A stretch of 64,000 nt of DNA, taken from a virus. The first letter of the stretch is position 1; each line of letters begins with the position of its first letter. The stretch is taken from positions 4,147 to 68,146 of the IMG/VR virus record IMGVR_UViG_3300035670_013168. One strand, given 5' to 3'. This document shows positions 8,022-50,783 of the stretch, piece after piece. Under the pieces are notes generated by a model. It did not search any database. It was given only the letters and a program-made list of their open reading frames with translations, and was not told the DNA's origin. The translations under genes and the position numbers were made by a program.

Positions 8022-8051
8022 AAAACTGCGTGAGTTCTGGTAAACAATTTG

Positions 8052-35384: not shown

Positions 35385-35385
35385 A

Positions 35386-36546
35386 TCATATAAAGCTTGC
35401 TAGCTTCTCATCGTACATCTTACAAATGGACGAGAAGCTGTAATCTTTTCTAATTCTCTTTGCAGCCTCTGATGCTCGGTGCTTCGGCATCACTGACTTC
35501 TCATAGAACTTTCTCAGCTTCTTCTTGGCGTCGGCTTCGTGTGGGGCGGCCCACCTTGTGCCCTTCATGAAGATCTTGTTGTCCACCCTGGAGTCGTGAA
35601 TCTCAGACAGCGTGTAGTCTACAGAGACAAAGTCCTCCTTGAGGAAGTCGAGGTGGCCTGACCAACCCGTAGCTATGACTGGCACTCCTGCAGCAGCAGC
35701 CTCTAGCGTTGGAAGCCCATATCCCTCTCCCCTAGTAAGGGAGACAAGGGCCTTGACTGATGGGTGTCGCATGAGTGAAACCATCTCCCTGTCTGACATC
35801 TTGCCGTGAAGAAAATGGACTCTCGGATAGGGAGACTTCCTCGCCTCCTTCACGATCTGTGACACAAAGCGCTCAGTGACAAGCCTATCAATTCTAGTTG
35901 TCTTTCCTGAGTTTGTCTTTAGAATGAGCCCTACATCCTCGTTATTCTTAAACTCCTCAAACATCCACTTGAGAGTGTAGAAGAGGTTCTTCCTGTCATT
36001 CTCCGGGTTGTTTCCTGTGAGCTGTCCGAACAAAAGGAAATTGAATGAGGTGCTGAAATTGTGAGGAAATTCCTCGATATTGTCGTTTAGGATCTCATCG
36101 TAGAATGACTCAGCAATAACAATGATTGGCACTCTTAGTAGGCCTGATGCCTCAAGTGTTCGCTTAGTGTGACTCGATGGGACAACGACAGCGGACATTC
36201 TATTGCATGCCTCGATCCACTCAGGGTTGCACCTGTCTGTCTCAACTGCAGCTGTCACTCCAATGTTGACTCTCGCGACTCGAGGATCCCACTCATTTGG
36301 AAGCTGCACCTGTAGTGAGAGATCAAACACAGAGACATTTTCCATATGACCTGTTCTCATCATTATCTTGCCAATGAGACCTTCCTCCTCGTTGGCGTCA
36401 ATAATCCAAGGTGTGACACCCCACGGAAGTGTCTGAATCTTCACGTCCCAGTCTGGCTTCGAAATTGCCCACCTGGCAACCTGCCTTGCGTGGACTCCAT
36501 AGCCTGAGCTGGTGAGAAATGGCCCTCTAAGTAGTACTCTCTTCAT
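35386..36546 (-). CDS. Glycosyltransferase, GT4-like (GT-B)
   Basis: SGYGVHAR, DRKN, RGEGYGLPTLEAAAAGVPVI (EX7E). Confidence 0.88.
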   Translation of the reverse strand: MKRVLLRGPFLTSSGYGVHARQVARWAISKPDWDVKIQTLPWGVTPWIIDANEEEGLIGKIMMRTGHMENVSVFDLSLQVQLPNEWDPRVARVNIGVTAAVETDRCNPEWIEACNRMSAVVVPSSHTKRTLEASGLLRVPIIVIAESFYDEILNDNIEEFPHNFSTSFNFLLFGQLTGNNPENDRKNLFYTLKWMFEEFKNNEDVGLILKTNSGKTTRIDRLVTERFVSQIVKEARKSPYPRVHFLHGKMSDREMVSLMRHPSVKALVSLTRGEGYGLPTLEAAAAGVPVIATGWSGHLDFLKEDFVSVDYTLSEIHDSRVDNKIFMKGTRWAAPHEADAKKKLRKFYEKSVMPKHRASEAAKRIRKDYSFSSICKMYDEKLASFI

Positions 36547-37793
36547 CAGTGCTCCGTAATTCTCCAGGTGGACTTATTGCTACGCCAATTCTCTGTGAGA
36601 TCAGTTAGCGTAGCGTCCCAGTCGTCTATCGTCTTCTGTAAGCTGAACTCTGAGAGGGCGTAGCTTCTGGCTTTCTGTCCTAGTGCTTCACGCTCATTTG
36701 GGCTCATCTCGTACAGCTTCAGAATTGCATTTGCTGTGGTCTCTGCAGAGCAGTAGTCCTCGTAGATATAAGGCACCTGCTGTGATCCCACCAGGGACTG
36801 CATCTCAACAGGAAGGGCGACGCCGTTCTCAGTTCCATCTCGGTGATCAACCACCTGTCGCGTGAGTCCGCCTGTCTTGAGGGCGACGATTGGCTTGCCG
36901 CACTGCATTGCCTCTAGGGTTGCGAGGCCAAATCCCTCAGCATAGGAGATGTTGATGCATGCGTCTGAGATGTTGTGCAGGACATTCATCTTTGCAAAGT
37001 CAATTCGCTCCGGAGAGAAGACGACTGTATCCTGTATTCCCATCATCTCAGATGTCGCGTAGAGGTTTGGCCCCTCCTGATCGTCCGGCTGTGTGTGCAT
37101 GAGGAGGCACACGTCTTTCTTGCCGTACTTCTCCTGGACCTTTTGCGTGAAGAGCTGCCAGGCCCAGAGGATGTCATTGGGGCGCTTTCTCTTAGCGTTC
37201 CTATTGACCCAGAAGAGGACGAACTGGTCCTTGCGTGGCTCACCTAGCACCTGCACTTTAAGACGCTTCACCTCATCCTTGTTTGGAATTTGGTGGAATA
37301 TCTCCTCTGGAAGAGCGTGAGGAATGAAGTTCGTCTTTCCTGGACACATGTCCTTGACGTAGCTGTAGGTCGCGTGCGAGTGGCAGTTGATCAGGTCAGT
37401 TGAGTCGTATAGGACCTGATTGAACTTTGGAACAGGAAGATTGTCCCACACATGCCAGTATGCAATTGGGCAGATCTGGTGAATCTCGTCCTCCATCTCC
37501 CACACCCAGATGAAGAACCTTGGATCAGTGAACAGAAGGAGGACGTCAGGGCGCTCAACGGCAAGAGTCTGCCTGAGCATATCAGGGGTGCCAAATCCAT
37601 CGACAGGCTTGATGATGAAGTCATCGCTGAGACGAACGACGTCGTAGTTCGTGTGCTTGATGGCTGCACCAAACTGGCGCACCGACCACTTGCCCTTCTT
37701 GATCAGACCGTCTATCAGGTATCTGCTCTGGCAGCCGACTCCGGATGTGGAGAGGGCGTGGTCGGATAGCATTAGGATCTTCTTCTTGGCCAT
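36546..37793 (-). CDS. Glycosyltransferase, GT4-like (GT-B)
   Basis: NRNAKRK, AEGFGLATLEAMQCGKPIV (EX7E). Confidence 0.9.
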   Translation of the reverse strand: MAKKKILMLSDHALSTSGVGCQSRYLIDGLIKKGKWSVRQFGAAIKHTNYDVVRLSDDFIIKPVDGFGTPDMLRQTLAVERPDVLLLFTDPRFFIWVWEMEDEIHQICPIAYWHVWDNLPVPKFNQVLYDSTDLINCHSHATYSYVKDMCPGKTNFIPHALPEEIFHQIPNKDEVKRLKVQVLGEPRKDQFVLFWVNRNAKRKRPNDILWAWQLFTQKVQEKYGKKDVCLLMHTQPDDQEGPNLYATSEMMGIQDTVVFSPERIDFAKMNVLHNISDACINISYAEGFGLATLEAMQCGKPIVALKTGGLTRQVVDHRDGTENGVALPVEMQSLVGSQQVPYIYEDYCSAETTANAILKLYEMSPNEREALGQKARSYALSEFSLQKTIDDWDATLTDLTENWRSNKSTWRITEH

Positions 37794-37858
37794 CTAAACT
37801 CCACTCCTAGGTAACCATGGAAAACTAACTTGGATGTCACAGAAGTAAACGTGGTGTC

Positions 37859-38713
37859 TCAGGGACAGTGCTTTGTGCCCTTGTAGGGACAAAAACCACA
37901 GGAGTCGCGATTCTTCAGGAACATGCCCTTTCGGACTGAGGACACCATACTGCGCACAATCTTGTTTGCCTTCTCGATTGATCCTGGGCCAACTGACACG
38001 GGCACAAGCTCGCAGATCTTGCCTGGTTTCGCGGCGCGCTTGAGGAGAATGAAGCCACAGCGTATGTCCTTGAGGGGTACACCGTGCTTCTTGGCCCAGA
38101 AGTGCTTGTAGAGGATGAGCTGAGCGGTCATTAGAATGTCCTGCTTCTTCTCGCGCTTCCAGCCATATGACTGCGCTGTCTTCCAGTCAATGATCCAGTA
38201 GATGTGTCCATCGCCCTTCTTGTTTGGAACCTTTAGAACACCGTCCACGAATCCCTTGAACTTGACGCCGAGGTCATCGATGTCCTCGTAGAGATCCTCC
38301 TCCGCCTTGAAGATCTCCCATCCTGGAAACTCCTCATCGAGGAATCCTAGGACATCATCCCACATCTCATTGGCCCACTTTGACCACGTCTCAAAAGGAG
38401 CGTGCTTGTACCACCCAGGCTGGCGTGCGATCCACTCAGGGTCGTCAAAGTTGCACTTGTCCCACTCAGACTTGAAAGCAGTTATGAGCTCCTCCCTATT
38501 CACCTGCTTTGTCTCAATGAGCGACTCACATCCGGCGTGGACAGCAGTTCCAAAAGGGAGGAAGGGAGACGGCTCGCCCATCTCAATCTTATCAATGTGC
38601 ATCAGCTTGTGACGGTAGGAGCACTCCTTCCAACACTTCACCTCCGAGAAGGAGATGTGTGGCTTGCCGGTTGGTAGTAGTGGTAGAGATACTTTTTCAG
38701 TCTGTTCTGTCAT
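37859..38713 (-). CDS. PD-(D/E)XK exonuclease, Cas4/AddB-like with Cys cluster
   Basis: HISFS...ECSY, FGTAVH, FKGFVDG, IIDWKT, QLILY, C-terminal CGFCPY...HC. Confidence 0.85.
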   Translation of the reverse strand: MTEQTEKVSLPLLPTGKPHISFSEVKCWKECSYRHKLMHIDKIEMGEPSPFLPFGTAVHAGCESLIETKQVNREELITAFKSEWDKCNFDDPEWIARQPGWYKHAPFETWSKWANEMWDDVLGFLDEEFPGWEIFKAEEDLYEDIDDLGVKFKGFVDGVLKVPNKKGDGHIYWIIDWKTAQSYGWKREKKQDILMTAQLILYKHFWAKKHGVPLKDIRCGFILLKRAAKPGKICELVPVSVGPGSIEKANKIVRSMVSSVRKGMFLKNRDSCGFCPYKGTKHCP

Positions 38714-38719
38714 GTCCTG

Positions 38720-38748
38720 ATTATAGACACGACAGAAGAGATCTTCAA
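38720..38748 (-). promoter_or_regulatory. Putative sigma70-like promoter, near-leaderless transcript
   Basis: TTGAAG-N17-TATAAT, 6 nt before the ATG at 38713. Confidence 0.55.
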
Positions 38749-38755
38749 AATATTC

Positions 38756-39634
38756 TCACTGTTTAAGATCACGGAGGAAGCCAGAAACATAGTCTTCAAG
38801 TCTTATTCTAGGCGACCAACCTGTCTCAGCTGATGTCTTAGAGATGTCTGCCAGCGTCACTCTTGCTTCTCCTGAGCGTGCTGGGATATAGGTTATCTCG
38901 TTGGGATTAAAAAGTTTCGCAAGCTCATTGATGGAGTAATTTCTACCGGTTCCAAGATTGTAGACTTCGCCTCTGTGATCGCCTTGAGAAAGAGTGTATA
39001 GTCCTCGTACGATGTCAGTCACATGTATAAAGTCACGACGTTGCTCGCCGTCTCCTGTGACAGTGAGAGGTGCGGCCGCCTTCTTTTGTCTCTCAAAGAT
39101 TCCGACAACAGTTGCATAGGGTCCTACAATAGGCTGCCTCACACCATACACGTTAAAGAACCTCGATACCGCCGTGTTCATTGAGTAAACGCTCGAGTAC
39201 ATCTCACAGAGCTGTTCACCTGTGTACTTTGCGTACGCGTATGGATTGAGCATTGGGCCTGCATAGGCAGAGCTGCTTCCTGCGTACACAACATTTGCGC
39301 CGAGGCGTCGAGCATACTCTAGAACATTGGCAGTGCCATGAACATTCGTTGAGAGACAAGTAAGAGGATCAGTAAAGCTGGGCTGGATCCTAGAGAACCC
39401 GGCAATATGGAACACAGTGTCGAACTTGCTATCTGCGTACTTGTAAGTGTTGATGTGCTGGATGTCATCAATCCAGTACTCAACACCCTCTCTCATATTG
39501 CTGCGAGATGAGCTCTCTGACGATAGATTGTCCATCACAGTCACTTCGAACTGTTCGCCCTCACTCAGGAGTAGATCTACCATGTGCGAGCCGATAAACC
39601 CTAGTCCGCCTGTTACTAGTACTCTCTTCTTCAT
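38756..39634 (-). CDS. NAD-dependent nucleotide-sugar epimerase/dehydratase (extended SDR)
   Basis: TGGLGFIGSH, SSSAY, YAYAK, FFNVYG, GDGEQRRDFIHV. Confidence 0.92.
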   Translation of the reverse strand: MKKRVLVTGGLGFIGSHMVDLLLSEGEQFEVTVMDNLSSESSSRSNMREGVEYWIDDIQHINTYKYADSKFDTVFHIAGFSRIQPSFTDPLTCLSTNVHGTANVLEYARRLGANVVYAGSSSAYAGPMLNPYAYAKYTGEQLCEMYSSVYSMNTAVSRFFNVYGVRQPIVGPYATVVGIFERQKKAAAPLTVTGDGEQRRDFIHVTDIVRGLYTLSQGDHRGEVYNLGTGRNYSINELAKLFNPNEITYIPARSGEARVTLADISKTSAETGWSPRIRLEDYVSGFLRDLKQ

Positions 39635-40593
39635 GATAATTTCTCCTTCTTCGATGAAACAGCTCTTCCCACTTGACGCTCCCAGTCTCTATCATCGGGG
39701 CCTCTTACCTCGAGATTCTTTCTCCAGGCAGCCTCTAGAACCATAGGATCAACTCCATGCGTCCTGGCCAGACACATCATTGCGTTAATGTCCTTGGGAA
39801 AGCAGTGACCTCCATAACCACGTTTGCCATCAGGACCAGGAACTGCCCAGTGACTTTCTCCTAGACGGAGATCATACTTGGCATACTCAACGACCTTATC
39901 ATAGTCAATATCTAGCCCGGACTTATCTAGTGACTCGCACACCTGTGCCATCTCATTGGCAAAAGCAACCTTGACAGTGAGAAAGTTGTTGGTGATATAC
40001 TTGACCATCTCGGCAGTTGTGGAGGAAGTCTTGATAATTGGTACCTTTGGAAATACAGACTGAAAGACTTGCTTCACTTGATTGATCCACGGGCTCGGAC
40101 CACCTAGGATAATTCTGTTTTGTCCCCGCATATCATTCAGAGCATTTGCTTCTGTCAAGAACTCGGGATTGAAAATGACGTGCAGTCCTTGAGAACAATA
40201 CTTCTTATTCCACGTCTCTGTTGAGCCTGGTGGAATTGTCGACTTCACAACAGCCACCCTCTCACCAGGAACAGATGCTAGTTCAGATAGCACACTTTCA
40301 ACAATTGATAGATCGGATGATCCATCTTCGTACATTGGTGTAGGCACACAGACAAAGTACACCTTCGTAAAGTCACTCATGCTCTCAGCTGCACGTACTA
40401 ATTCAGCAATACTGTCAGGAGTGAAGAAACTATCAGGTCTGTTTGGATTGTCACTTTTTAGCGCAAATATCCTGATTCCTCCTGGAGCCAGTTTCATTGC
40501 CTTGTCATAGACATAAACAGCTGTTCTTCTCTCGGAGAAAACTGTCGTTAGTGAACCACCTACAAATCCCTGACCTATCACTGCAATAGACAT
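39631..40593 (-). CDS. ugd: UDP-glucose/GDP-mannose 6-dehydrogenase family (short form)
   Basis: IGQGFVG, FVCVPTP, KSTIPPG, NPEFL, AEMVKY, GYGGHCFPKD; likely start MSIAVIG (ORF track extends to 40623). Confidence 0.88.
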   Translation of the reverse strand: MSIAVIGQGFVGGSLTTVFSERRTAVYVYDKAMKLAPGGIRIFALKSDNPNRPDSFFTPDSIAELVRAAESMSDFTKVYFVCVPTPMYEDGSSDLSIVESVLSELASVPGERVAVVKSTIPPGSTETWNKKYCSQGLHVIFNPEFLTEANALNDMRGQNRIILGGPSPWINQVKQVFQSVFPKVPIIKTSSTTAEMVKYITNNFLTVKVAFANEMAQVCESLDKSGLDIDYDKVVEYAKYDLRLGESHWAVPGPDGKRGYGGHCFPKDINAMMCLARTHGVDPMVLEAAWRKNLEVRGPDDRDWERQVGRAVSSKKEKLS

Positions 40594-40600
40594 CTCAACC

Positions 40601-41584
40601 TCACAGCTTGAGTGCCAAATCAAAATCTTCTCTATACATCATCTCGACAAGCTGCTCAAAGTTGACCTTTGGCTTCCAGCCTAGCACGCTTCGAGCCTTT
40701 GATGAGTCACCCTCGAGGTGAGGCACCTCATGTGGCCTAAAGAGGCGCGGATTAATTCGAACATGGTCCTCAACCTTGAGACCTGCAATCTCAAATGTCT
40801 TATCGAGAAACTCCTGTACTGTGTGTGTCTCTCCAGTTGCAATTACATAGTCATCAGGAGTTCTCTGCTGAAGCATCAGCCACATCGCCTCAACATAGTC
40901 ACCTGCAAAGCCCCAATCCCTCTTGGCGTCCAGGTTCCCGAGCTCGAGGATGCTCTGGCGCCCCAGCTTGATGTTGGCCGCGGCCATCGTAATCTTGCGG
41001 GTGACGAAGGTCTCACCGCGGAGGGGCGACTCGTGGTTGAACAGGATGCCCGAGGAGGCGTGCATTCCGTAGCCCAGCCGGTAGTTTCTGACGAGACCGT
41101 GCGAGAAGAGCTTGGCACAGGCATAGGGGGAGGCCGGGGTCATTCGGGTCTCCTCGTTCTGGGGTACCTCGGGATTGTCCCCGTACATCTCGGAGGAGCT
41201 TGCCTGGTAGAAACGGGCCCCCTTACCCTTCACATCTCTGAGAAGGCGGATGGCCTCGAGCAGGCGCAGGGTTCCAACCGCCACGGCATCAACCGTCTCC
41301 TCCGGCACCTCGAAGGACACCTTGACGTGCGACTGGGCGCCCAGGTTATAGACCTCGTCAGGCTCGAGCTCGAGGACAAGGCGATTGAGGCCTGGTCCGT
41401 CGTGCAGGTTGCCATAGTGGAGGTGGAAGTTGGGATGGTCAAAAAACTCATTGACCCGGTCCGTGTTGATGAGGGACGTGCGGCGCTTGACGCCGTGAAC
41501 CTCATAGCCCTTATCTAGTAGAAGACGGGTCAGGTAGGCTCCATCCTGCCCTGTCACACCGGTTATCAGAGCCCTCTTGCTCAC
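40601..41584 (-). CDS. gmd: GDP-mannose 4,6-dehydratase
   Basis: [58 protein letters not shown]. Confidence 0.97.
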
Positions 41585-42573
41585 TCCACACCTCTCACAT
41601 TGGGATATTGTAGCATGAACCAGTCGGATGTTTCCCTTATTGCAATATCGAAAGGTGTGTAGTCCTCTTCCTGCCAGGAGGTGAGATCGAAGAGGCGCCG
41701 ATTGGATGACGGTTTCCGGTGCTGTCCCATCGGCTTGGTGGTGTCATAGGATATCTGTCCCTCATACCCCAGAGCGTCACGCAGGGTCTCTGCGACCTCG
41801 CGGATGGATCTCTCCTCGGTGCAGCCGATGTTGAGGGGCAGGTCATCGTCATACTCATCCGCGACAACCTTGAGGATGCGCGCGGCGTCTGGGGCATAGG
41901 TGAATTCCCTCAGGGGGGAGCCATCGCCCCACACCGTCACGCTGGGGGCACCTGAGAGCTTGGCCTCCCAGATGCGCCTCATTAGGGCCGGAATAACATG
42001 CCCGTCCTCAAGGTGGAAGTTGTCGCCCGGGCCAAAGAGATTGTTTGGAATGACTGTGATGTACGGGAGGCCTAATTGGGCGCGAATGGCACGGGTGTGC
42101 ACGTCCAACATCCTCTTGGCATAGGCATACCCAAAATTGCTCGGATGCGGAGGGCCCAGGTGGAGCTGGTCCTCCGTCAGCGGCAGGGTCACGTAGGGAG
42201 TGTCGGGATAGACACAGGTCGAGAGGACTGATACTACCTTGGGCACCCGACTCCGGGAGCAGGCATCTAGCAGGTTCAGCCCCATCTGGGCGTTCTGGTG
42301 GAAGAAGGTTGCCAGGCGCTCGCTGTTCGCCTTGACCCCGCCAACGTAGGCCGCCAGGTGATAGACGGTGTCGAGCCCACTCGACCACGTGGGATTGGCA
42401 TCAGGATTGCGGATATCGAATTGCTCAACATACTCCCTGACCGATGTCTCATCGGAAATATTGAGCTCGCGGCGGGATGGGGCCAGGACTTTGGAGCCGG
42501 TGCTCTCGAGATAGGAGCGCAGTGAGCTGCCCAGCATTCCTCCTGCACCGGTAATTGTGATGAGGTCAGTCAT
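41581..42573 (-). CDS. fcl: GDP-L-fucose synthase
   Basis: [55 protein letters not shown]. Confidence 0.95.
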
Positions 42574-42584
42574 AAAGTCATGCC

Positions 42585-42613
42585 ATTATAGTTGGGGTGT
42601 ACACCCATGACAC
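42585..42613 (-). promoter_or_regulatory. Putative sigma70-like promoter for fcl-gmd-ugd
   Basis: GTGTCA-N17-TATAAT; spacer contains the palindrome GGGTGTACACCC. Confidence 0.45.
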
Positions 42614-42655
42614 TATCCTGGTTAGGCAATCACTAGCTCTGCGGCTGCTGTGTCT

Positions 42656-43351
42656 TTACTTGCTAGAAATTGAACTTGCAAAGTCCTCAGAGAGAAAGAA
42701 AAAGTTTGTATGTTCGTATGTGTCATACTGATACTGAAGAGAAGATAGGATAATGCCTGACGGGGTCATAACCGGTTGAAGTGGAACTAACCCTAGAGAA
42801 CTTAGCTTTTCTATCATCGTCAATAATGAAATATTTCTTTCTCTCCAACATCCCCCATATTCGAACTGACCCCCTACTATCCTCTTAGAAAGGTTAGAAT
42901 CGATGGTGTCAATGGCGTCTAGCTCATATCCTTCAACGTCCATCTTTAGATACCAAAGTTTCTTATCATACTTCTGGTTTTTGACCAGGATATCTTTCAA
43001 CGTATTCTTCACAACCGGTGTTTCTAGAATTTGCTTTGACTTAAGCTCATTCGTGAAAGCAGGACGATTATTCAGAGATGTCTTAGAGTATTGTCCGTCC
43101 GGCGTATATACCTTGCCTACCCCCGTGTCTTTGCAAACAGCAAAGTTGTATATCTCAAAATGAGGAAATGCAATAGATAAACTTTCACACAAGGTTGGGA
43201 TGGCCTCAATTAGAATTGCACTGTCTATCAGGTCAGAAACACTAGAGGTGAACTTACCTTCGTTTGCTCCGCAGTCTATCAATGAGACTTTATCACCATA
43301 TCTGTCGGACATTTTTTTGAGGATGCCCCTAGCAATTGCAGTTTCTAACAT
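42656..43351 (-). CDS. FkbM-family methyltransferase
   Basis: IDCGANEG, LKMDVEGYE, QFEYG. Confidence 0.88.
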   Translation of the reverse strand: MLETAIARGILKKMSDRYGDKVSLIDCGANEGKFTSSVSDLIDSAILIEAIPTLCESLSIAFPHFEIYNFAVCKDTGVGKVYTPDGQYSKTSLNNRPAFTNELKSKQILETPVVKNTLKDILVKNQKYDKKLWYLKMDVEGYELDAIDTIDSNLSKRIVGGQFEYGGCWRERNISLLTMIEKLSSLGLVPLQPVMTPSGIILSSLQYQYDTYEHTNFFFLSEDFASSISSK

Positions 43352-43367
43352 TACACACCTATATAAT

Positions 43368-44069
43368 TCAACGTTTTATGAAAAAAGCCCCAGTATAATC
43401 AACCATGGTAATGTCAAACTTAAGATTTCTAGACTCCTCAAATTCATGAATGGCTTTTTTGAACCCCATCCAGTGTCCATAATCATCTAAAAAAATATAT
43501 CCACCTGGTGCAACAAGATCATAAAGGTTTTCTATCACATGCTTTGTAGGGTAATAAAAGTCGACATCTATTCTCAGCATTGATATTGTTGCCGGTCTTG
43601 TTTTTTCATCTAGTATGCTAATAGTATCCTCAACCTTGCCATTTATGATGCGCAGTTTTTCTTCAAGAACGCCAGTCTGTAGCATCTTTTCCTTTACCCA
43701 CTCATCTGATACAAGATACTCTAAATTCTTTTTCAATGATTGATTGTCCCACAAGTCGACTGCTTTTACACCTGTATACGACACGTCATATTCTTCGTGT
43801 GGTCTATCCCAACCGGCAACCTGGTCATTTGTTCCCGCATATGTGTCATATAACCAAAAATTTCTATTTGAGCAATCATTCTCCATGGACATATATGAAG
43901 ATATCGCTATGAAAGAAGACTTACCAGATGCTACACCACATTCGACATAATCCCCGGGTATACCTTTTCCTACAATGTCTTTGATGCAATTATAAAGCCC
44001 TAGGCCTCTTTGTTGATGATGACCGCTACCATAGACTCGAGACATTTTATTGAATATTATACTATACAT
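43368..44069 (-). CDS. TylF/MycF-family sugar O-methyltransferase
   Basis: IPGDYVECGVASG, LYDTYAG, GKVEDT, LRIDVDFY, LDDYGHW. Confidence 0.92.
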   Translation of the reverse strand: MYSIIFNKMSRVYGSGHHQQRGLGLYNCIKDIVGKGIPGDYVECGVASGKSSFIAISSYMSMENDCSNRNFWLYDTYAGTNDQVAGWDRPHEEYDVSYTGVKAVDLWDNQSLKKNLEYLVSDEWVKEKMLQTGVLEEKLRIINGKVEDTISILDEKTRPATISMLRIDVDFYYPTKHVIENLYDLVAPGGYIFLDDYGHWMGFKKAIHEFEESRNLKFDITMVDYTGAFFIKR

Positions 44070-44095
44070 TTATTTTCTCCAAAACTATACGTCTG

Positions 44096-44674
44096 TCATG
44101 TCTTTGAGGACATAATAAAAAGCACTAAAGAGTTCTCAATATCTTGCAAGACAACATTAATACCACAGCCATTTTTTCTTGCTAACTCATAAAAATCATG
44201 TGTGAATACATGTAAAGCTGATGTCCGATAATCAGGACAAACATCAATGACTATCAATCGATCAGTTACTCTAAGCACTTCTCTTATGACACCTTCTATG
44301 TCTTTATGAGGTACATGCAACAAAACCAAAGATAGCACAATAGCATCAAAAGAGTTATCACCATAAGGTAGATTAGACAAATGTTCAATTAACTTAAAAG
44401 AATAGCTTACATTATTTCTTTTACATGATTCATAAAGTCTGGATCTAAATCCTTCATGGATATCCATGAAGGTTACATCTTTGCCTGCATAAGATTCAAC
44501 TAATCTTCCAGTACCAGGTCCTAAATCGCATATTTTCTGACAATCTGAAATGTTATCCTTTATAAAATTCACATGCAAATTTTTCATCTTTTCATCTTTA
44601 GTCGACTCTTCACTATTGGGTTCTAGTCGTTGTGACCAGTAGTTCCTGGGCTCGTATACATTGCTCTTAGACAT
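44096..44674 (-). CDS. Class I SAM-dependent methyltransferase
   Basis: ICDLGPGTGR, LPYGDNSFDAI, VLLHVP, EVLRV. Confidence 0.88.
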   Translation of the reverse strand: MSKSNVYEPRNYWSQRLEPNSEESTKDEKMKNLHVNFIKDNISDCQKICDLGPGTGRLVESYAGKDVTFMDIHEGFRSRLYESCKRNNVSYSFKLIEHLSNLPYGDNSFDAIVLSLVLLHVPHKDIEGVIREVLRVTDRLIVIDVCPDYRTSALHVFTHDFYELARKNGCGINVVLQDIENSLVLFIMSSKT

Positions 44675-44698
44675 TATGTTGTCCTTATATCCCGCATG

Positions 44699-45448
44699 CT
44701 ATAGTATGTCGAACCTAAAATGTGTCGCAGGTGGTCTCTGATATCCTAAACTTTCTAGAAACTTGCACATATGAAATCTCTTGTCCAGGTGCCCGGGATC
44801 CATGGTGCTAATTCCATTATTGGAAATACGCCTCCAGGTCTTGACCTTGTCATCATGATGCACATAAAACCTAGGGGCTGACGAATGTCGAAAGTGCATA
44901 TAGTTGAAGTATATGTCTTCGGCGTTCATTTGTTTGTCGACTAGGCTTTTTGCGTTAGTATTTTCATTGTATAAATCCAAGTATTTTCTATGAAACATTG
45001 CATATCCAGTTAAAAGAAAGTTGTATGGAATATTGCTCTTGTAGTGAGCTGCGTCTCCAGTATACAGCCTTTTACTTGGATCGATCAGCCTAGGAACACA
45101 ACCGACCAGAGAATCCGTTGAGCTTGACCAGAACTTATACATCTCGACTATTGACTCTTTGGTGCAGGTATAATCATCATCTATAGAAACTATGCAATCA
45201 GTCTTTATCTCCTCAAAGTTCATGAATCGATTGTTTAGAGAATTAACCTTGGGACATACCAACACTATCTTTTTATTGCCAATAGATTCGATATGCTTTA
45301 AAAGCTCACTTGAAGGCTCTCTATCGACATTCTGCCATACGATTATGAGTCTGTCTATTGTATCATTGTTAGCAATCCTAAGTGTTGGATGCTCGCTATC
45401 CAATAGGAAAACATCTCTATTGTAAGATGGCATTATGATCGTGATCAT
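44699..45448 (-). CDS. GT64 glycosyltransferase (exostosin C-terminal/EXTL2-like)
   Basis: SYNR, IIVWQN, NSLNNRF, IKTDCIVSIDDD, LVGCVPR, YNFLLTGYAMFHRKYL, MNAEDIYFNY, HLDKRFHMC follow the EXTL2 motif order. Confidence 0.85.
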   Translation of the reverse strand: MITIIMPSYNRDVFLLDSEHPTLRIANNDTIDRLIIVWQNVDREPSSELLKHIESIGNKKIVLVCPKVNSLNNRFMNFEEIKTDCIVSIDDDYTCTKESIVEMYKFWSSSTDSLVGCVPRLIDPSKRLYTGDAAHYKSNIPYNFLLTGYAMFHRKYLDLYNENTNAKSLVDKQMNAEDIYFNYMHFRHSSAPRFYVHHDDKVKTWRRISNNGISTMDPGHLDKRFHMCKFLESLGYQRPPATHFRFDIL

Positions 45449-46101
45449 CGCATATTTTCTTCCAACATACTGTAGGGAACAATGCGTTCAATCCAGCCCC
45501 CATTACCATCCTCTCTATAGACATTATACAGATAAAATGGAAATTTGACTAAGTTATGATCATCGCTTAAATCATGGTTGCAATCATAAGTCATTTCAAA
45601 AAGATTCTTTTTGTTATCAGGTATACTTGCTCTATCTTTTTTCTGAGGGTCAAAAACATATAACTTTTGTATTAATGACATATCACTGCAAATGTTTTTC
45701 ACTATTTCATGAACTTGCCTGTGATGCATATGTCCATACTCCCCAATGCGACCATGTGTTACTATCATTTCCCATCGTTGAGAAGAAATAATACGAGATA
45801 TATCTGGTTCAATATTTTCTTGGATTCTATTTTTCTTTCCACTGTCGATACAGTTTAGCATTAAAGAATCACAACCTAAGACACTGGGGAGCCTCTCTAG
45901 AAAAGCATTTCTTCTTCTGTCTCCAACAAAACTAGGCTGTGGCGTTGTTACTGAGACTATCAACCACTTTTTATCTCTATTTTGTAAAAGAAATGATCCT
46001 GCAAAAACTATTTCATCATCTGGATGCGCAACAAACATGACACAGCTGCTAGCAATATCATTTGTTGAACCAAAGGACCAAGACTCTTTAATAAAAAGCA
46101 T
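45445..46101 (-). CDS. PIG-L/LmbE-family N-acetylhexosamine de-N-acetylase
   Basis: VAHPDDE and THGRIGEYGHMHH metal motifs. Confidence 0.85.
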   Translation of the reverse strand: MLFIKESWSFGSTNDIASSCVMFVAHPDDEIVFAGSFLLQNRDKKWLIVSVTTPQPSFVGDRRRNAFLERLPSVLGCDSLMLNCIDSGKKNRIQENIEPDISRIISSQRWEMIVTHGRIGEYGHMHHRQVHEIVKNICSDMSLIQKLYVFDPQKKDRASIPDNKKNLFEMTYDCNHDLSDDHNLVKFPFYLYNVYREDGNGGWIERIVPYSMLEENMR

Positions 46102-46650
46102 TTATAGCTTTCTATACCCAACTATGGACTCATAGTCGATAGATTTTTGTATATTGTCAAATCGACAAATAATCTTATTTGCTTTTGAAAAGGCTGAACT
46201 CTTTTTGTAGAAAAAAATAAGCCCATCTCTATTTAGAAGACTAATAAAAAGATTTAGAGCACTAGCGTCGTTCAATATGTGATATGGCATGCCCTCAACA
46301 TAGTATTCGCACAAATGAAATAAATTAACAATATCAAAATGAGGTAAAAAGTTTTCACTTAAAGTATAGAAATCGGCAAACATTACTTTGTAGTTTTTTG
46401 CTAAATTAGGATCTTGTCTCAACAGATCAATATAGGCATTATGCTCTTCATGCTGTAATGTTATTCCCAGTATATTGTTTGGAATAGGCAGTGTTTTATT
46501 CTTCAATCCAATGTAGTGATGGCCGCCGGTACCATAGTGAAATATATTTTTACCATAAAAATTTTTCTCCATATACTCGGCAAAGTGTAAATCACACGGA
46601 CATTCATGCGGTTGAAAGCTATAGAACTTTCTATACTCGTTTAGCTTCAT
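46102..46650 (-). CDS. Hypothetical protein, possibly divergent SAM methyltransferase fold
   Basis: NIFHYGTGG and FDIVNLFH weakly resemble class I MTase motifs. Confidence 0.5.
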   Translation of the reverse strand: MKLNEYRKFYSFQPHECPCDLHFAEYMEKNFYGKNIFHYGTGGHHYIGLKNKTLPIPNNILGITLQHEEHNAYIDLLRQDPNLAKNYKVMFADFYTLSENFLPHFDIVNLFHLCEYYVEGMPYHILNDASALNLFISLLNRDGLIFFYKKSSAFSKANKIICRFDNIQKSIDYESIVGYRKL

Positions 46651-47414
46651 AGGCTCATTCCCTCATATCCATATCGTGACATTCCTTCTACAAGATTTAT
46701 TTCTGGTTTATTACTTAAGCCCCATGCTCCCATATTGTGGGTGATTGGATATACGACTCTATTGGCATTTGAAAAAAAGGAGGCCCACCAACTATAGGAA
46801 CTCTGGGATATAATCATGTTTCGAAACTTTGAGAAGTAATACCAGTCCAAGATATAATTGTCTGTACAGACTATAGTTGGTCTTAAATGAGAAAAGTAGC
46901 TTATGAATGGGTCGTTAGGAGAATCTGTGAATATCCATATTCGTTCATGATTAAAAGAGTTGATCATTTTCATGTAATGATCAGTTGTTATTGTGTATCC
47001 ATGAGAGTGATAATCACCCAATCGAATATGCACTCCTAGGTCGGACTCATCTGGCATATCGATATATCTAGAACTTACCATATGGTCGAATAGCAGCTTA
47101 ATCTCCTCAGAAACGCCAATCCATTCCTGGGTTAATTTTTCTCTATATGGAAGATAGTATGAAGATCTCTGAAAGTACCCCTCAAGGTGTATTGGCCCAT
47201 TATGTTTTAGGGCTGACTCAATATCAATAATGTGTCTCTTTAGCGTTAATACACTATTTCCTTGTGGGTTTCTTCCTGTGATATTCTCCTGTATATCAAA
47301 ACCGTATATGGGAGGACACGACATACTCATGCCCGTTTCTTCTGATAAAATTCTGGCCATCGCATATTGGAAAAGCTGATTGCCAGTTCTTCCCAGGTAT
47401 TTTACGGTTATCAT
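46647..47414 (-). CDS. GT11 alpha-1,2-fucosyltransferase-like
   Basis: GRTGNQLFQYA, LEGYFQ, GVHIRLGDY, IFTD, SSYSWWAS; likely start MITVK with ATGA overlap (ORF track extends to 47435). Confidence 0.9.
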   Translation of the reverse strand: MITVKYLGRTGNQLFQYAMARILSEETGMSMSCPPIYGFDIQENITGRNPQGNSVLTLKRHIIDIESALKHNGPIHLEGYFQRSSYYLPYREKLTQEWIGVSEEIKLLFDHMVSSRYIDMPDESDLGVHIRLGDYHSHGYTITTDHYMKMINSFNHERIWIFTDSPNDPFISYFSHLRPTIVCTDNYILDWYYFSKFRNMIISQSSYSWWASFFSNANRVVYPITHNMGAWGLSNKPEINLVEGMSRYGYEGMSL

Positions 47415-48250
47415 GGCATACCACCTAGATGACAAAGGATGTTTTCATGAAAGTTATCAGGCATCAAAAACCCCTGATAGAAAGTAAAGATCTTTTCTTG
47501 CGCTTCTTTTATCCACTTTTCATCTAGATTCAAAAAGTCTGATGCATGCGAAGCATGCTTTTCATCAACTAGAATATAACTGTCTTTTGGAAGTGTACTG
47601 GGGACTTTGAATCCATCTGAAATAATGACCGGTATGCAGCCAGAAGATATCGACTCCCACAATCTTATTGTGCCATATCCAGTGCCGCGTGGGCATATTG
47701 AATAGATCGACCTAGACAATAAATCTTTGTAGTCGTTTTCATTCGACGCGCTCGGGGACTCAAAGTGCCATTTGCCAGTGTCTATAGAAAGAACCCTAGG
47801 ATCACGAGATATCTCTTTTCTAGTTTTGTGTGTCTCATAACTTCCCATAAAGCTGGCCAGTATGTCTCTTCCAAACGCTTGATTGACATTTTTGGTCTCA
47901 CAATTAATCGGCCAGTGAGGTATAGATACGTGGTTAACATGACTCGAAGCATGACAAGAAAAAACGGAGCATTCATACCATTGCAACATATCACAGTTAA
48001 TATGCTGGGATATCATGATACATCTCGAATATTCTTCGCCTAGATGCCTTCTAATGCCATCGATAATTTGCTGAGTTGATCCTACACCATATTTTTTAAT
48101 AACTCTGACCCAGCTAACATCTATTAGAGTTCTGTCTATTGAAGAGTATGAATCAATATTTTTTTTTATGAGATTGTGATAGTTTTCCTCAGTCGGAACA
48201 CTGCAAGAAACACCCGACACATCTAGATTTTCTATGGCAAGTATTTTCAA
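47411..48250 (-). CDS. GT47 exostosin-family glycosyltransferase
   Basis: RDILASFMGS, Y..LLSRSIYSICPRG.G..TIRLWESISSGCIPVIISD...P. Confidence 0.85.
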   Translation of the reverse strand: MKILAIENLDVSGVSCSVPTEENYHNLIKKNIDSYSSIDRTLIDVSWVRVIKKYGVGSTQQIIDGIRRHLGEEYSRCIMISQHINCDMLQWYECSVFSCHASSHVNHVSIPHWPINCETKNVNQAFGRDILASFMGSYETHKTRKEISRDPRVLSIDTGKWHFESPSASNENDYKDLLSRSIYSICPRGTGYGTIRLWESISSGCIPVIISDGFKVPSTLPKDSYILVDEKHASHASDFLNLDEKWIKEAQEKIFTFYQGFLMPDNFHENILCHLGGMP

Positions 48251-49023
48251 TGTTTTGCCCCTACTTCTTTTTCATAAGTTTCTTTATATTTTGTGTATAT
48301 TGGACAATTGATATTCCATGGCTTGGCATTATTCCAATAGTGATTTAGATACACCGGGTGTTCAACAGGCAGCCCTTTGCAATATGCGCTTTCCCCATCA
48401 AAGACCGTATATCGGGCCCAACTATTCCATTCATAGCCCACGTCTTGATGTGTATAATCATAATTGGCTTCTTTAAAAAAGCTATTGATGAGAGACTGAT
48501 CAGTTCCTGGATGGACAAATCTTCTATCTCGAAAAAGAATTGCCATAAAGTCATTCCAGGAAAAAAGCTTTTGATCAGAGACCAACATTACCCCGGAGTT
48601 TAAGACTGGCTCTGTCAGGTGATCAGTTTGACCAGGGATCACCTGGTGATTGACGGCTATGAATGGCTTTTGCTTTGACGCATTGATCAAAGCCTTAGTA
48701 TCGTGGATTACAAAGGCATCGGCATCGATGAAAATAAATGGCTCATCAATCAAACAAAGGTTGTACAGTTTAAACAATACATTGTGACTGGCCTTCTTTT
48801 CATCAGGGTGTCCTGAAAAAGATATATCTGTATTGCGATGCCGAATTTCATTTCGAATATTCAAGCTAGAACACTTCGTCTCTAGATATTGAGGCAAAGG
48901 TTTTTCACTAAGAACTAGAATATCATTATCTGGAAAATATTTTCTAACCTGATGCATCCAGGCTGAGCACATGATATTGTAGTTTTCATTATCCGGATAA
49001 TTGAAGACAGACGTAATCAACAT
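48247..49023 (-). CDS. GT8-like glycosyltransferase
   Basis: KLY, FIFIDAD (DxD), LNSGVML, DQSLIN, WN, HYWNNAKPW. Confidence 0.82.
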   Translation of the reverse strand: MLITSVFNYPDNENYNIMCSAWMHQVRKYFPDNDILVLSEKPLPQYLETKCSSLNIRNEIRHRNTDISFSGHPDEKKASHNVLFKLYNLCLIDEPFIFIDADAFVIHDTKALINASKQKPFIAVNHQVIPGQTDHLTEPVLNSGVMLVSDQKLFSWNDFMAILFRDRRFVHPGTDQSLINSFFKEANYDYTHQDVGYEWNSWARYTVFDGESAYCKGLPVEHPVYLNHYWNNAKPWNINCPIYTKYKETYEKEVGAKH

Positions 49024-49913
49024 GATATTTTCTCATCGATAGAAATTTTTCCGGTTTCCTTCTCTACTTTTAGATCGATCAAGAAGTCATCTTGCAAAAA
49101 ACAGTTACTGTTGATATTTTCATCTCCAATATTTTCGAATGAAACAACTCTGTTTTTTGAATCTTCGATATTGAAGCCATCCCTAGATCTTCTATAGTAG
49201 ATCAGGTGATTTCCATATGGCAGGTCCATATCCTGACCCTTTTTTTCAGTCTGATTTTTTGGTAACCACGGATACATACAGGCTCCCCATGGATTGATAG
49301 GGTCCGGCCCAAACCTGATTTCTCCAGAAGTCTTTATGCAACAAAAGGTCCAGTCTCCAGCATTTTCGTATAGTTTTCTTCTTTTCATCCCAGGATTTTG
49401 AAGACCAACTCGAACATACTTTCTATTGACTACATTTACAAGGTTAAAATACTCACAGTCAGTGTCTGGTTCTTCCCACGCAGATATTCTGTCCAATATC
49501 CTGTCCTTGATACCGTCATATAGCATGACATCATCTTCTAGTGAGAAGTAGATCGATTCAGGGTATAGATTTCTACAAACTTCCAAGCTTTTGATTTGAG
49601 CTTTTGAGTGTGTCTTTGAGACGGGGTGCGTGTCTATTGTGTTTCCGTGGTCTCTTTTTAGCTTCAAGCTTGGGATAGGATCCCATTCACTGACATCAAT
49701 ATACGATATTTTTACACTTTCTTGACTTTGGCGCCTGTATCTCTCTACTTCCTTCGATGTCTCATCAGTAGATCCGTCGTCGGTTACAATAATGTGATCG
49801 AATATTTTTGCAGCGTGTCTTAGACATGAGTAAATTGTTGGCCCAGAGTTGTATGTCTTAATGCAACAAACCCAAGGAACGGTTCTACAATATTGTTTCC
49901 ACAAAATGCTCAT
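49017..49913 (-). CDS. GT2-like (GT-A) glycosyltransferase
   Basis: KTYNS, IIVTDDGSTDET, FSLEDD. Confidence 0.78.
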   Translation of the reverse strand: MSILWKQYCRTVPWVCCIKTYNSGPTIYSCLRHAAKIFDHIIVTDDGSTDETSKEVERYRRQSQESVKISYIDVSEWDPIPSLKLKRDHGNTIDTHPVSKTHSKAQIKSLEVCRNLYPESIYFSLEDDVMLYDGIKDRILDRISAWEEPDTDCEYFNLVNVVNRKYVRVGLQNPGMKRRKLYENAGDWTFCCIKTSGEIRFGPDPINPWGACMYPWLPKNQTEKKGQDMDLPYGNHLIYYRRSRDGFNIEDSKNRVVSFENIGDENINSNCFLQDDFLIDLKVEKETGKISIDEKISC

Positions 49914-50783
49914 TTAGATATCTACTCCAATTGATCTCATTCTGGCGCTTAAGCAGTTTTCCTCAAATAGTGATGCACTATCATCCACAACAACACTTCT
50001 CACAGAGCCTATTTTTCTCTTTAGTTCGCTGGGGCTTTTGAAAAATATCACCGCTGATTTATCTCTCAACATCTCCTCGTGCCTCCTGTAGGAACCAACT
50101 GTGTGCTGTAGCAATAGCCGACCAGAATACATGACCTCGTAGGCCCTTGTATTGAGGGCCCGGAGGACACCGATGGGATTAATCACGGTTCGATATGACA
50201 TTAGGTTTAGTATGTAATCATCCCAACCTAACGACCTTGAGGTGTTGGTGATGACAATACGGTCCTTCAAATCCGGATCCTGCAGTATCGATGACAGGAG
50301 CTCATTGCGCATCTGATACTCGGGCTTTCCTGCCTGGCCACTGAAGAGAAGTTTATCCGTCTCAGGAAGAGGGGTTCTCTCATTGTAGAACCGGCACGAG
50401 GCCCACTGGGGAAGCCAATCGAAGCCATACTTGTCACAGTCGTCCTCGTCACAGGCCAGCACCCTCTTGCAGAACTTGGACGCCCTCAACAGTGATAGGT
50501 GGCTCTTGTATTGCCAGGCTGGGACAATGGCATCGATCCTCTCGAAGCACCAGACCCAGTGCTCCCATTTTTCCTTGCGCGCGATCCAACGTGTAAGCTT
50601 CTCATCCGTGTCCCAGAGAAAGAAGAGGAAATCATGCCCGATGAAGAGCAGGTCATCCTCGACTTCAAAGACGTGCTCATAGTCCTGCTCGGAAACGACC
50701 ACTACATCCTGTATTCCATAGTCGAGAATCGAGGATGAGGTGCCGCAGCCATAGTCCTGTGTGACCAGCTTCACTCTTCCCAC
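49914..50783 (-). CDS. Putative GT-B glycosyltransferase (CgeB-like C-terminus)
   Basis: LLFSGQ...Y..R, DYILNL, INP...NTRAYEVMYSGRLLL; glycan-locus context. Confidence 0.62.
   Translation of the reverse strand: MGRVKLVTQDYGCGTSSSILDYGIQDVVVVSEQDYEHVFEVEDDLLFIGHDFLFFLWDTDEKLTRWIARKEKWEHWVWCFERIDAIVPAWQYKSHLSLLRASKFCKRVLACDEDDCDKYGFDWLPQWASCRFYNERTPLPETDKLLFSGQAGKPEYQMRNELLSSILQDPDLKDRIVITNTSRSLGWDDYILNLMSYRTVINPIGVLRALNTRAYEVMYSGRLLLQHTVGSYRRHEEMLRDKSAVIFFKSPSELKRKIGSVRSVVVDDSASLFEENCLSARMRSIGVDI

Follow-up and report, generated by a model that had tools for sequence, protein, structure and literature searches.

The window analyzed here, i.e., a 64,000-nucleotide stretch comprising bases 4147-68146 of the 68,146-base IMG/VR virus record IMGVR_UViG_3300035670_013168, carries on its minus strand a run of 20 consecutive genes, extending from 52663 down to 34340 (~18 kb), in which a stand-alone glycosyltransferase gene of family GT64 is accompanied by genes for a GT47-family glycosyltransferase, a PIG-L-type deacetylase, and further glycosyltransferases, methyltransferases and sugar-nucleotide enzymes. 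From this gene content, we consider that the run probably encodes a mosaic pathway making a defined hetero-oligosaccharide with fucose and O-methyl groups instead of a polymer of two repeating sugars. The GT64 gene is the novel part of the finding, being without match in deposited phage records. The original prediction made on this DNA, which had flagged five of the 20 genes, proposed instead that the phage employs a split exostosin to build a glycosaminoglycan-like chain of glucuronic acid (GlcA) and glucosamine or N-acetylglucosamine (GlcN(Ac)). That proposal is opposed by the distribution of the genes, the absence of PIG-L from all 26 related loci, the short form of the Ugd-like gene, the GT64 tree and the 20-gene context.

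The GT64 gene (44699-45448, minus strand, 249 aa) matched the Pfam family Glyco_transf_64 (PF09258) at E 1.6e-34 and 119.8 bits (cut-off 21.3) over profile positions 2-226 of 245, and a six-frame search of the record was in agreement (119.2 bits). The motifs NSLNNRF, SIDDD and NAEDI, by which the gene had been called EXTL2-like, are present in its translation, and by phmmer against the PDB, EXTL2 was shown to be its best solved relative (8.8e-20), followed by EXTL3 (1.9e-17), EXT2 (3e-14) and EXT1 (1.2e-11). In the part of the EXTL3 paper drawn on here (PMC9178029), contacts to uracil, phosphate, ribose and Mn are assigned to Tyr670, Arg672, Asn697, Asn723, Asp745 and Asp746; GT64 acceptor-binding residues are not named in that part of its text. 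Using a numbering offset taken from the phmmer alignment, these residues align with Y9, R11, N40, N69, D91 and D92 of the phage protein, N40 being adjacent to a gap of one residue. In all 11 members of the phage clade, the DDD at 90-92, R11, N40 and N69 are invariant, with Y or F at position 9. Given that the contact residues for uridine diphosphate (UDP) and Mn are kept across the clade, a UDP-sugar donor is well supported, and the protein is predicted to be a UDP-sugar dependent, retaining GT-A enzyme. By analogy with its relatives, it is likely an alpha-N-acetylhexosamine transferase.

Relatives of this protein are few. A collection of 5.8 billion clusters contained 11 others, all of them metagenomic, and a profile search of 1.84 billion representatives yielded 2159 matches at E<=1e-3, only four of which exceeded 200 bits, the next being at 131 bits. 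No tblastn match at E<=1e-3 was obtained for GT64 in 50,697 phage records, nor did a megablast of 38000-53000 against the same records give any match, and the Pfam GT64 family was found in none of 14 control genomes. Relatives were also not recovered from IMG/VR scans (using the single protein or an alignment) or from 185,579 species genomes; these were short-peptide-pattern scans, in which absence is weak evidence. In the literature searched there was no report of a phage or prokaryotic GT64, the exostosin mentioned in PMC9716671 being a host gene near a retron. Seven metagenome loci with GT64 relatives were available for comparison, of which only two, L005 and L007, have enough flank for neighbors to be tested.

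The GT47 gene (47411-48250, minus strand, 279 aa, TTG start) lies 2 kb from the GT64 gene in the same operon-like run, as originally described, the genes in between encoding PIG-L, a 182-aa protein and a GT11-like protein. It matched Exostosin_GT47 (PF03016) at E 2e-14 and 54.1 bits (cut-off 33.4), the match being confined to profile positions 137-274 of 293, i.e., the C-terminal half, and the predicted CPRG...RLWE...GCIPVIISD motifs are present. An AlphaFold2 model based on a 20-sequence alignment displayed a complete two-lobed fold (predicted local distance difference test score 88.6). In Foldseek searches, the ten best PDB neighbors of this model were all EXT1/EXT2 chains (E 1.8e-10 to 9.3e-9; template modelling (TM) score by query 0.66-0.69), followed by EXTL3 and then by the chlorovirus protein A075L (E 1e-5, TM by query 0.39). 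The PRG.G..R..E stretch is invariant in 20 of 20 GT47-like sequences and E199 aligns with the Glu of EXT1 RFLE, from which we infer that E199 is the conserved acid residue on helix C-alpha-4 of PMC9178029. Based on sequence and model, the GT47-fold protein is predicted to be a stand-alone inverting GT-B glycosyltransferase. A complex prediction for the GT47 and GT64 proteins scored 0.00, with controls not run, and is counted neither way. The phage protein also hit RXYLT1_C weakly (22 bits, below the cut-off of 27), and in a GT47-like protein from one viral locus (L011) RXYLT1_C scored above GT47 (49.5 vs 41.5 bits); RXYLT1 is a xylosyltransferase. An IMG/VR scan with the GT47 alignment gave 19 GT47-bearing loci, two of which are giant-virus bins. 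Adjacent pairs of GT47-like paralogues are present in L005 (2683-4384), L007 (3889-5569) and L011 (6572-8276), and the window has one copy.

The PIG-L gene (45445-46101, minus strand, 218 aa) matched Pfam PF02585 at E 6.5e-13 and 49.7 bits (cut-off 28.2), so that Exostosin, Glyco_transf_64 and PIG-L all passed the family check suggested for them, their E-values lying well outside what chance would give. Its TGA stop overlaps the ATG of GT64 as ATGA, as read directly from the sequence and in line with the earlier claim, and the two genes appear to be translationally coupled. The translation contains AHPDDE and the His cluster HMHHRQVH, which we take to be zinc site motifs; a PDB sequence search with it gave nothing at E<=0.1. 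None of the 26 related loci (seven GT64-bearing and 19 GT47-bearing) contained PIG-L, and tblastn at E<=1e-3 gave no match to it among the 50,697 phage records. In the window, PIG-L separates GT64 from the gene for the 182-aa protein, and in L006 and L007 these two genes adjoin directly. Because of this arrangement, in which PIG-L is absent, the coupling is taken to be real but particular to this phage. The 182-aa protein has a class I S-adenosylmethionine-dependent methyltransferase-like fold according to an ESM Atlas structure search (TM 0.67-0.76 to methyltransferase clusters), which serves as a lead only, and it had no Pfam match. Its homologues (45-52% identity) abut GT64 in L004, L006 and L007 and are absent from L005. 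The pairing of PIG-L with a retaining GlcNAc transferase is familiar family logic in the synthesis of glycosylphosphatidylinositol (GPI), mycothiol and bacillithiol.

In transcription order, the 20 genes of the run are as follows.

50771-52663, minus strand: 630-aa protein with a GT2 domain (Pfam PF00535); gene 1, at the upstream end of the run
Within 49017..52663, minus strand: unknown 289-aa protein, with a below-threshold Glyco_trans_1_2 match only; gene 2
Within 49017..52663, minus strand: GT2 glycosyltransferase, 298 aa (Pfam PF00535); gene 3
48247-49023, minus strand: GT8-like protein, 258 aa (PF01501 E 2.7e-4, 21.0 bits vs cut-off 24.3, profile positions 7-250 of 253); gene 4
47411-48250, minus strand: GT47; gene 5
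46647-47435, minus strand: GT11-like protein (alpha-1,2-fucosyltransferase family), 262 aa (Pfam E 0.0024, below cut-off); gene 6
46102-46650, minus strand: 182-aa methyltransferase-like protein; gene 7
45445-46101, minus strand: PIG-L; gene 8
44699-45448, minus strand: GT64; gene 9
44096-44674, minus strand: Methyltransf_11 (Pfam E 4.9e-13); gene 10
43368-44069, minus strand: TylF-type sugar O-methyltransferase (Pfam E 3.2e-32); gene 11
42656-43351, minus strand: FkbM methyltransferase (Pfam E 2.5e-9); gene 12
41581-42573, minus strand: GDP-L-fucose-synthase-like short-chain dehydrogenase/reductase (SDR), Fcl (NF047922 E 6.7e-65, 219.5 bits, under the cut-off of 500); gene 13
40601-41584, minus strand: GDP-mannose 4,6-dehydratase, GMD (TIGR01472 458.5 bits vs cut-off 415, equivalog level); gene 14
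39631-40623, minus strand: Ugd-like protein; gene 15
38756-39634, minus strand: epimerase/decarboxylase-like SDR, overlapping the Ugd-like gene; gene 16
37859-38713, minus strand: PD-(D/E)XK nuclease (PF12705 E 2.3e-20); gene 17
36546-37793 and 35386-36546, minus strand: two GT4 glycosyltransferases (PF00534 E 1.4e-15 and 2.1e-8); genes 18 and 19
From 34340, minus strand: unknown 258-aa protein, at the downstream end of the run; gene 20

Six glycosyltransferases therefore exceed their Pfam cut-offs (two GT2, GT47, GT64 and two GT4) and two fall below (GT8-like and GT11-like), with PF00535 E-values of 7.4e-8 and 7.4e-10 for the 298-aa and 630-aa GT2 proteins, respectively. Three methyltransferases were identified by Pfam, with the 182-aa protein a fourth at the level of a fold lead. 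As these additional glycosyltransferases and methyltransferases would be unnecessary for a two-sugar polymer, the gene content points to a complex glycan. The sub-threshold assignments can be set beside those of homologues in the related loci. The GT11-like protein has homologues adjoining GT64 in L003, L004, L005 and L007, that of L007 passing GT11 at E 2.6e-14, while the GT8-like protein has counterparts of 36-37% identity in L005 and L007, with no significant PDB sequence match and no tblastn match at E<=1e-3 in the phage records. Homologues of all three Pfam-assigned methyltransferases occur in L007. In PHROG, the two GT4 proteins both fall in glycosyltransferase family 2170. A promoter/terminator consensus scan of 34000-53400 revealed no clear operon break, the counts (41 vs 29.9 and 20 vs 13.9 in shuffled expectation) being near those expected. 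The PD-(D/E)XK nuclease gene interrupts the glycan genes midway, with the SDR gene on one side and the GT4 pair on the other.

The run is compositionally heterogeneous. The ten genes at 42656-49913 have a guanine plus cytosine (GC) content of 0.32-0.40, as against 0.57-0.585 for the GMD and fucose-synthase-like genes and 0.55 for the 630-aa GT2 gene; in the high-GC genes that flank this low-GC cassette (40601-42573 and 50771-52663), GC at third codon positions reaches 0.70-0.72. The Ugd-like gene, at 0.455, is near the phage backbone value and is compositionally outside the cassette that holds GT64 and GT47. The related loci have a GC of 0.26-0.30. Given that GC differs sharply between the cassette and the sugar-nucleotide genes, we regard the run as a mosaic, and its composition suggests separate sources for these two sets of genes.

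Most of the low-GC cassette is common to AT-rich marine phage contigs. L005 and L007 share a syntenic cluster consisting of GT8-like, two GT47-like paralogues, Methyltransf_11, GT64, GT11, FkbM and GMD, with TylF in L007 only; dUTPase and PhoH genes occupy the flanks of L007. The original prediction supposed that GT47 and GT64 belong together, and their distribution bears this out in one direction only. When GT64 was sought by profile in six-frame open reading frames (ORFs) of the 19 GT47-bearing IMG/VR loci (E<=1e-3), none was found, and GT64 was likewise absent from four phage records with a GT47-like match, which represent two phages, S-SKS1 and an uncultured 735-kb phage. Independent distribution of the two genes, which the original prediction had named as a refuting outcome, is in part what these records show. 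In contrast, neither of the two testable GT64 loci lacked a GT47-like neighbor. Two further contigs (76,921 bp and 3,207 bp) probably also carry both genes, as judged by equal sizes alone. The GT47-like genes have other regular neighbors: of the 19 viral loci, seven have a GT11-like gene nearby and six have GMD or Fcl (at least 35% identity), and the neighbors of the GT47-like gene in S-SKS1 are GMD, GDP-L-fucose synthase and an annotated fucosyltransferase. Because of this recurrence in viral loci and in S-SKS1, the fucose genes are considered to be stable companions of the GT47-like enzyme, and GT64 is an occasional addition to a GT47/fucose-type cluster.

These distributions bear directly on the possibility that the two enzymes form a split exostosin co-polymerase, in which GT47 would add beta-GlcA and GT64 alpha-GlcNAc in alternation, PIG-L would partly de-N-acetylate the resulting heparosan-like chain and the Ugd-like gene would supply UDP-GlcA. 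We regard this as highly improbable. Both EXT1/EXT2 catalytic families are present and apparently intact, with EXT1/EXT2 the nearest solved structures for GT47, and the two GT64 loci with enough flank both have GT47-like genes. The run also includes a Ugd-family gene with GGHCFPKD. Moreover, as far as the quoted part of the EXTL3 paper goes (PMC9178029), exostosin sites are more than 45 Å apart and the mechanism is dissociative, so that separate proteins could in principle alternate. However, an obligate pair is disfavored because GT47-like genes occur without GT64, in all 19 IMG/VR loci and in the records of both phages. PIG-L is missing from every related locus, as is a Ugd-like gene from all seven GT64 loci, including L007, which appears to be bounded by its dUTPase and PhoH genes. 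The Ugd-like protein itself lacks the UDP-binding domain, and the overlapping SDR may consume its product. Furthermore, at least eight glycosyltransferases and three to four methyltransferases would be superfluous for a two-sugar polymer, and neither an exporter nor a membrane anchor was found in scans of the window.

The GT64 tree also argues against a split exostosin. We labelled 161 GT64 sequences by architecture, 52 match lines (41 proteins) hitting the phage GT47 profile upstream of the GT64 domain and one protein carrying GINT1_N. The tree was built from the 125 sequences with at least 200 matched positions, the other 36 having been dropped for short coverage. All 39 retained two-domain exostosins fell in a single clade, with a Shimodaira-Hasegawa-like approximate likelihood ratio test (SH-aLRT) support of 97. 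The 14 phage-clade rows lay outside it and grouped with two other short proteins (SH-aLRT 93). No GT47+GT64 fusion was present in the phage GT64 clade, and no close one was found among longer GT47 relatives, where a single weak GT47+GT2 protein was seen. Instead, in P0035, a 465-aa member of the phage GT64 clade, the GT64 domain is followed in the same chain by a GT25-like domain (PF01755, E 2.3e-8), and P0079, which belongs to the nearest outside group, is a GT92+GT64 protein. On account of these fusions, GT64 is considered to pair with several partner modules. Within the limits of this tree and a second one of 72 rows, both of which were quick, unrooted searches with several long branches, the phage GT64 appears to be an independent deep lineage with varied partners and not a recent exostosin fragment. 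The idea that it is a GINT1-type enzyme, prompted by a GINT1_N gene in L007, was dropped, since the lone GINT1-type representative in the 72-row tree fell on a long branch away from the phage clade, without support for any grouping.

The downstream Ugd-family gene was correctly recognized by the original prediction, in that the 330-aa protein meets the subfamily cut-off of TIGR03026 (200.7 vs 189.8 bits, positions 1-294 of 413), but it lies 4 kb from GT64, with three methyltransferases, the fucose-synthase-like gene and GMD in between, and the C-terminal UDP-binding domain is absent. The protein (39631-40623, minus strand) consists of NAD-binding and central domains only and did not reach the Ugd equivalog cut-offs (139.8 vs 670). 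UDPG_MGDP_dh_C (PF03720), the UDP-binding domain, gave no match at E<=1 anywhere in the record, the control being found in 14 of 14 genomes. Its 28 solved relatives in the PDB are 393-495 aa long and the Ugd of S-SSM7 is 383 aa. Forms of 267-291 aa, likewise with N-terminal and central domains only, occur in four other viral loci.

L011, 15123-15944: short Ugd form
L015, 18556-19359: short Ugd form
L016, 18032-18856: short Ugd form
L023, 3815-4690: short Ugd form

The phage protein contains GGHCFPKD, and the G-x-C-x-PKD stretch is kept in all five short phage forms; we take GGxCxxKD to be the catalytic cysteine motif of Ugd. An SDR gene is adjacent to the short Ugd in the window, L011, L015 and L016, and 2.3 kb off in L023. 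A broken gene or pseudogene was ruled out, as no C-terminal domain turns up anywhere in the record, the next gene (SDR) starts at position 1 of its own profile and four other viral loci have the same form. The Ugd-like gene is best described as a conserved short variant. It travels with GT47 and not with GT64, being present in 4 of the 19 GT47-bearing viral loci and in none of the seven GT64 loci.

The adjoining SDR (38756-39634) scored best in the PDB with a UDP-glucose 4-epimerase (5.8e-39), its best matches also including human UDP-glucuronate decarboxylase at 8.6e-33, and because of this resemblance any UDP-GlcA that is made may be converted onward. This raises the possibility of a UDP-xylose route, in which the short Ugd and the SDR would lead through UDP-GlcA to UDP-xylose (UDP-Xyl), and the GT47-fold protein would be a beta-xylosyltransferase acting on a fucose-containing acceptor, with GT64 and PIG-L as unrelated add-ons. 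The precedent is A075L of chlorovirus PBCV-1, which, according to the portion of PMC11571054 consulted, is a cytosolic enzyme once annotated as exostosin/GT47 that transfers Xyl from UDP-Xyl to the fucose of the capsid N-glycan as a beta-xylosyltransferase and is the founder of GT114. A075L was the first non-exostosin structural neighbor of the GT47 model, with target lengths of 279-280 residues in the Foldseek match. In addition, phage GT47-like proteins matched RXYLT1_C (outscoring GT47 in L011), the SDR resembles the human decarboxylase, short-Ugd and SDR genes are found with GT47-like genes in four of the 19 viral loci as well as here, and GT47-like genes keep company with fucose genes. 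Even so, the model is far nearer to EXT1/EXT2 than to A075L, the SDR matches the epimerase best such that a decarboxylase role is not established, and 15 of the 19 GT47-bearing loci have no Ugd-like gene in the fetched flanks. We consider this route unlikely.

It is also conceivable, though in our judgment rather unlikely, that the pathway we favor includes a GlcA-hexosamine unit within its larger glycan. GlcA would be added by the GT47-fold protein (beta, as by EXT1) or the GT8-like protein (alpha, as by plant IPUT1), GT64 would cap it with alpha-GlcNAc, PIG-L would convert this to GlcN, and the remaining enzymes would add fucose and methyl groups. Such a unit would be closer to the GlcN(Ac)-GlcA head group of plant glycosylinositol phosphorylceramide (GIPC) lipids than to a polymer. 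In the passages of PMC9178029 and PMC7980081 cited here, the characterized GT64 enzymes act on GlcA, and in the plant pathway the GT8 enzyme IPUT1, a GlcA transferase, precedes GT64 (PMC7980081). GT8-like, GT47 and GT64 are kept together in L005 and L007, and the coupling of PIG-L to a putative GlcNAc transferase fits the GPI/mycothiol/bacillithiol logic noted above. L007 also encodes a stand-alone GINT1_N protein (7508-8314, plus strand; PF24793, E 3.4e-30) near GT64, two genes upstream. GINT1_N is, however, absent from the window, and the GINT1-type representative was not near the phage clade; the GT8-like match is sub-threshold; and with no Ugd in any of the seven GT64 loci, UDP-GlcA there would be host-derived.

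No transmembrane-grade hydrophobic window was found in any of the 20 run proteins, the sole window of at least 1.6 being the Rossmann N-terminus of the SDR. Pfam scans of the window turned up none of the Wzx/Wzy, ABC exporter, flippase, polymerase or priming transferase families. Structural genes adjoin the run, i.e., a baseplate wedge gene (29580-31427) and giant ORFs with Laminin_G_3 matches. These observations bear on whether the cluster is directed at the host, remodelling its lipopolysaccharide, capsule or S-layer glycan (for example, in superinfection exclusion) by way of host membrane machinery. Sugar-nucleotide and glycosyltransferase genes are annotated in S-SSM7 and S-SKS1, the PHROG category of the GT4 genes is moron, auxiliary metabolic gene and host takeover, and the high-GC GMD and Fcl genes look to have been acquired from a source other than that of the cassette, all of which would suit such a role. 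Nevertheless, with no priming transferase, flippase, polymerase or ligase found, no membrane segment in the 20 proteins and a run that adjoins structural genes, we hold a host-directed cluster to be somewhat unlikely.

For the fucose-containing, O-methylated oligosaccharide that we favor, the following course can be envisaged. High-GC sugar-nucleotide genes (GMD and Fcl) and further GT2 and GT4 genes would have been joined onto the low-GC cassette at 42656-49913, and the glycan would be assembled in the host cytoplasm by soluble enzymes. The acceptor may be virion proteins, the most plausible choice, for which chloroviruses and mycobacteriophages provide precedents; the alternative is a glycan of the host envelope. 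Virion proteins are preferred because of the soluble enzymes, the structural-gene neighborhood and the viral precedents. GT64 would add an alpha-linked hexosamine from a UDP-sugar with a DxD-bound metal, as in EXTL2/EXTL3, after which PIG-L, following its family logic, would strip the N-acetyl group from this residue to leave a free amine. The GT47-fold enzyme would form a separate inverting (beta) linkage, with UDP-GlcA and UDP-Xyl as candidate donors, since donors differ among GT47 enzymes and their look-alikes. The GT11-like enzyme would add fucose from the GDP-fucose supplied by GMD and Fcl, and the methyltransferases would O-methylate the sugars.

Several points weigh against this course. 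Families and folds, UDP-binding residues, gene order and coupling, distribution and composition are shown; the sugars, linkages, step order and acceptor are inferred, the glycan product from family names, and virion proteins as acceptor are a guess from gene position and precedent. GT8-like and GT11-like are under their Pfam thresholds, and the fucose-synthase-like protein is under its NCBIfam cut-off. GT47 and GT64 occur together in both GT64 loci with enough flank (L005 and L007). In addition, the sections of the two papers used here describe GT64 exostosins that build alternating GlcA/GlcNAc (PMC9178029) and a plant GT64, GMT1, that adds mannose (Man) to GlcA-inositol phosphorylceramide, with GlcN(Ac) also linked to GlcA there (PMC7980081). 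Because these cited GT64s act on GlcA acceptors and a Ugd-family gene lies in the run, a GlcA-hexosamine unit is a fair expectation. Taken together, the heparan-like reading is weakly supported overall, and its polymer form is unlikely. The notion that soluble GT64, GT47-fold, PIG-L and short Ugd proteins build a GlcA-GlcN(Ac) structure, either as a brief heparosan-like segment or as a GIPC-like GlcN-GlcA unit capping a virion glycan, appears very unlikely; if true, it would represent glycosaminoglycan-type chemistry outside animals, carried out by soluble enzymes.

The window appears to be part of a large tailed marine phage, on the basis of its IMG/VR record and of PHROG matches to a baseplate wedge subunit (29580-31427), DNA primase (1881-2855) and PhoH (57957-59255). 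The CheckV completeness estimate is 17, so that the record represents one piece of a genome of far greater size. At 1-1884 (minus strand), Metallophos (Mre11/SbcD-like) and AAA_23 (Rad50/SbcC-like) domains are fused in a single frame that runs past the window edge. Its best phage matches were to Microcystis phage Mel-JY01, at 34% identity, and to uncultured huge phages of 484-735 kb. Very large ORFs of 420 to 1384 aa are lined up across 3458-28028 (minus strand), with Laminin_G_3 lectin-like matches in three and no PHROG match among those scanned. Probably encoding fibre or baseplate-associated proteins, these ORFs could supply the glycan acceptor or receptor-binding parts. A transfer-messenger RNA (tmRNA) gene at 61063-61421 (minus strand) matched Rfam RF00023 at 115.5 bits (cut-off 47) with the full model covered, and ARAGORN gave its tag peptide as ANDNSYSDLALAA. 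It is overlapped by a permuted-tmRNA match at 61295-61609 (58.7 bits).

Glycan pathways in phages are known, and in the literature searched GT64 is treated as an animal and plant family. Here, marine phage-like contigs harbor a stand-alone GT64 clade that is both small and deep. The unusual components of the phage glycan cluster are GT64, the coupled PIG-L and the conserved, domain-truncated Ugd. If expressed, the set would offer soluble, easily produced GT64, GT47, PIG-L partner and truncated Ugd proteins, whereas the eukaryotic counterparts are membrane-bound and hard to study. The cluster is also one more example bearing on which targets large phages glycosylate, and for what purpose. Striking as a heparan-like polymer would be, the evidence obtained here argues against one.

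Among known systems, the animal exostosins EXT1/EXT2/EXTL3 and EXTL2 have both families in common with the phage, the GT64 of which keeps the UDP/Mn residues and the GT47 of which keeps the PRG...R..E acid residue. They differ in that the phage genes are separate, with three genes between them and without a transmembrane or stem region, the phage GT64 lies outside the two-domain clade and viral GT47-like genes commonly occur without GT64. Animal heparan is, moreover, N-deacetylated by NDST, which is not a PIG-L enzyme. Prokaryotes reach a GlcA-GlcNAc polymer through E. coli K5 KfiA/KfiC and Pasteurella PmHS1/2, which belong to families GT45/GT2 and work with capsule export systems, whereas capsule export genes were not found in the window.

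The plant GIPC pathway, in which IPUT1 (GT8) is followed by GINT1/GMT1 (GT64), resembles the phage clade in having GT8-like and GT64 conserved together, and a GlcN(Ac)-GlcA product would fit GT64 with PIG-L. The GINT1_N and GT64 domains that are fused in plant GINT1 are separate genes in L007. Unlike in plants, the window is without GINT1_N, and the plant acceptor is a Golgi membrane sphingolipid. Cyanophage clusters are similar in that the S-SKS1 GT47-like gene lies beside fucose genes and S-SSM7 has Ugd with glycosyltransferases and a methyltransferase. They differ in that GT64, PIG-L and GT8-like were unmatched in the 50,697 phage records and the Ugd of the window is a short form. Glycosylation of phage virions has reportedly been described by Freeman et al. 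2023. In chlorovirus PBCV-1 (A075L/GT114, A064R, A111/114R and a viral GMD), the host is a eukaryotic alga and A075L resembles the GT47 model only modestly in structure (TM by query 0.39), but it shares with the phage cluster cytosolic viral glycosyltransferases, GMD and fucose in the glycan, and its A064R has a methyltransferase domain.

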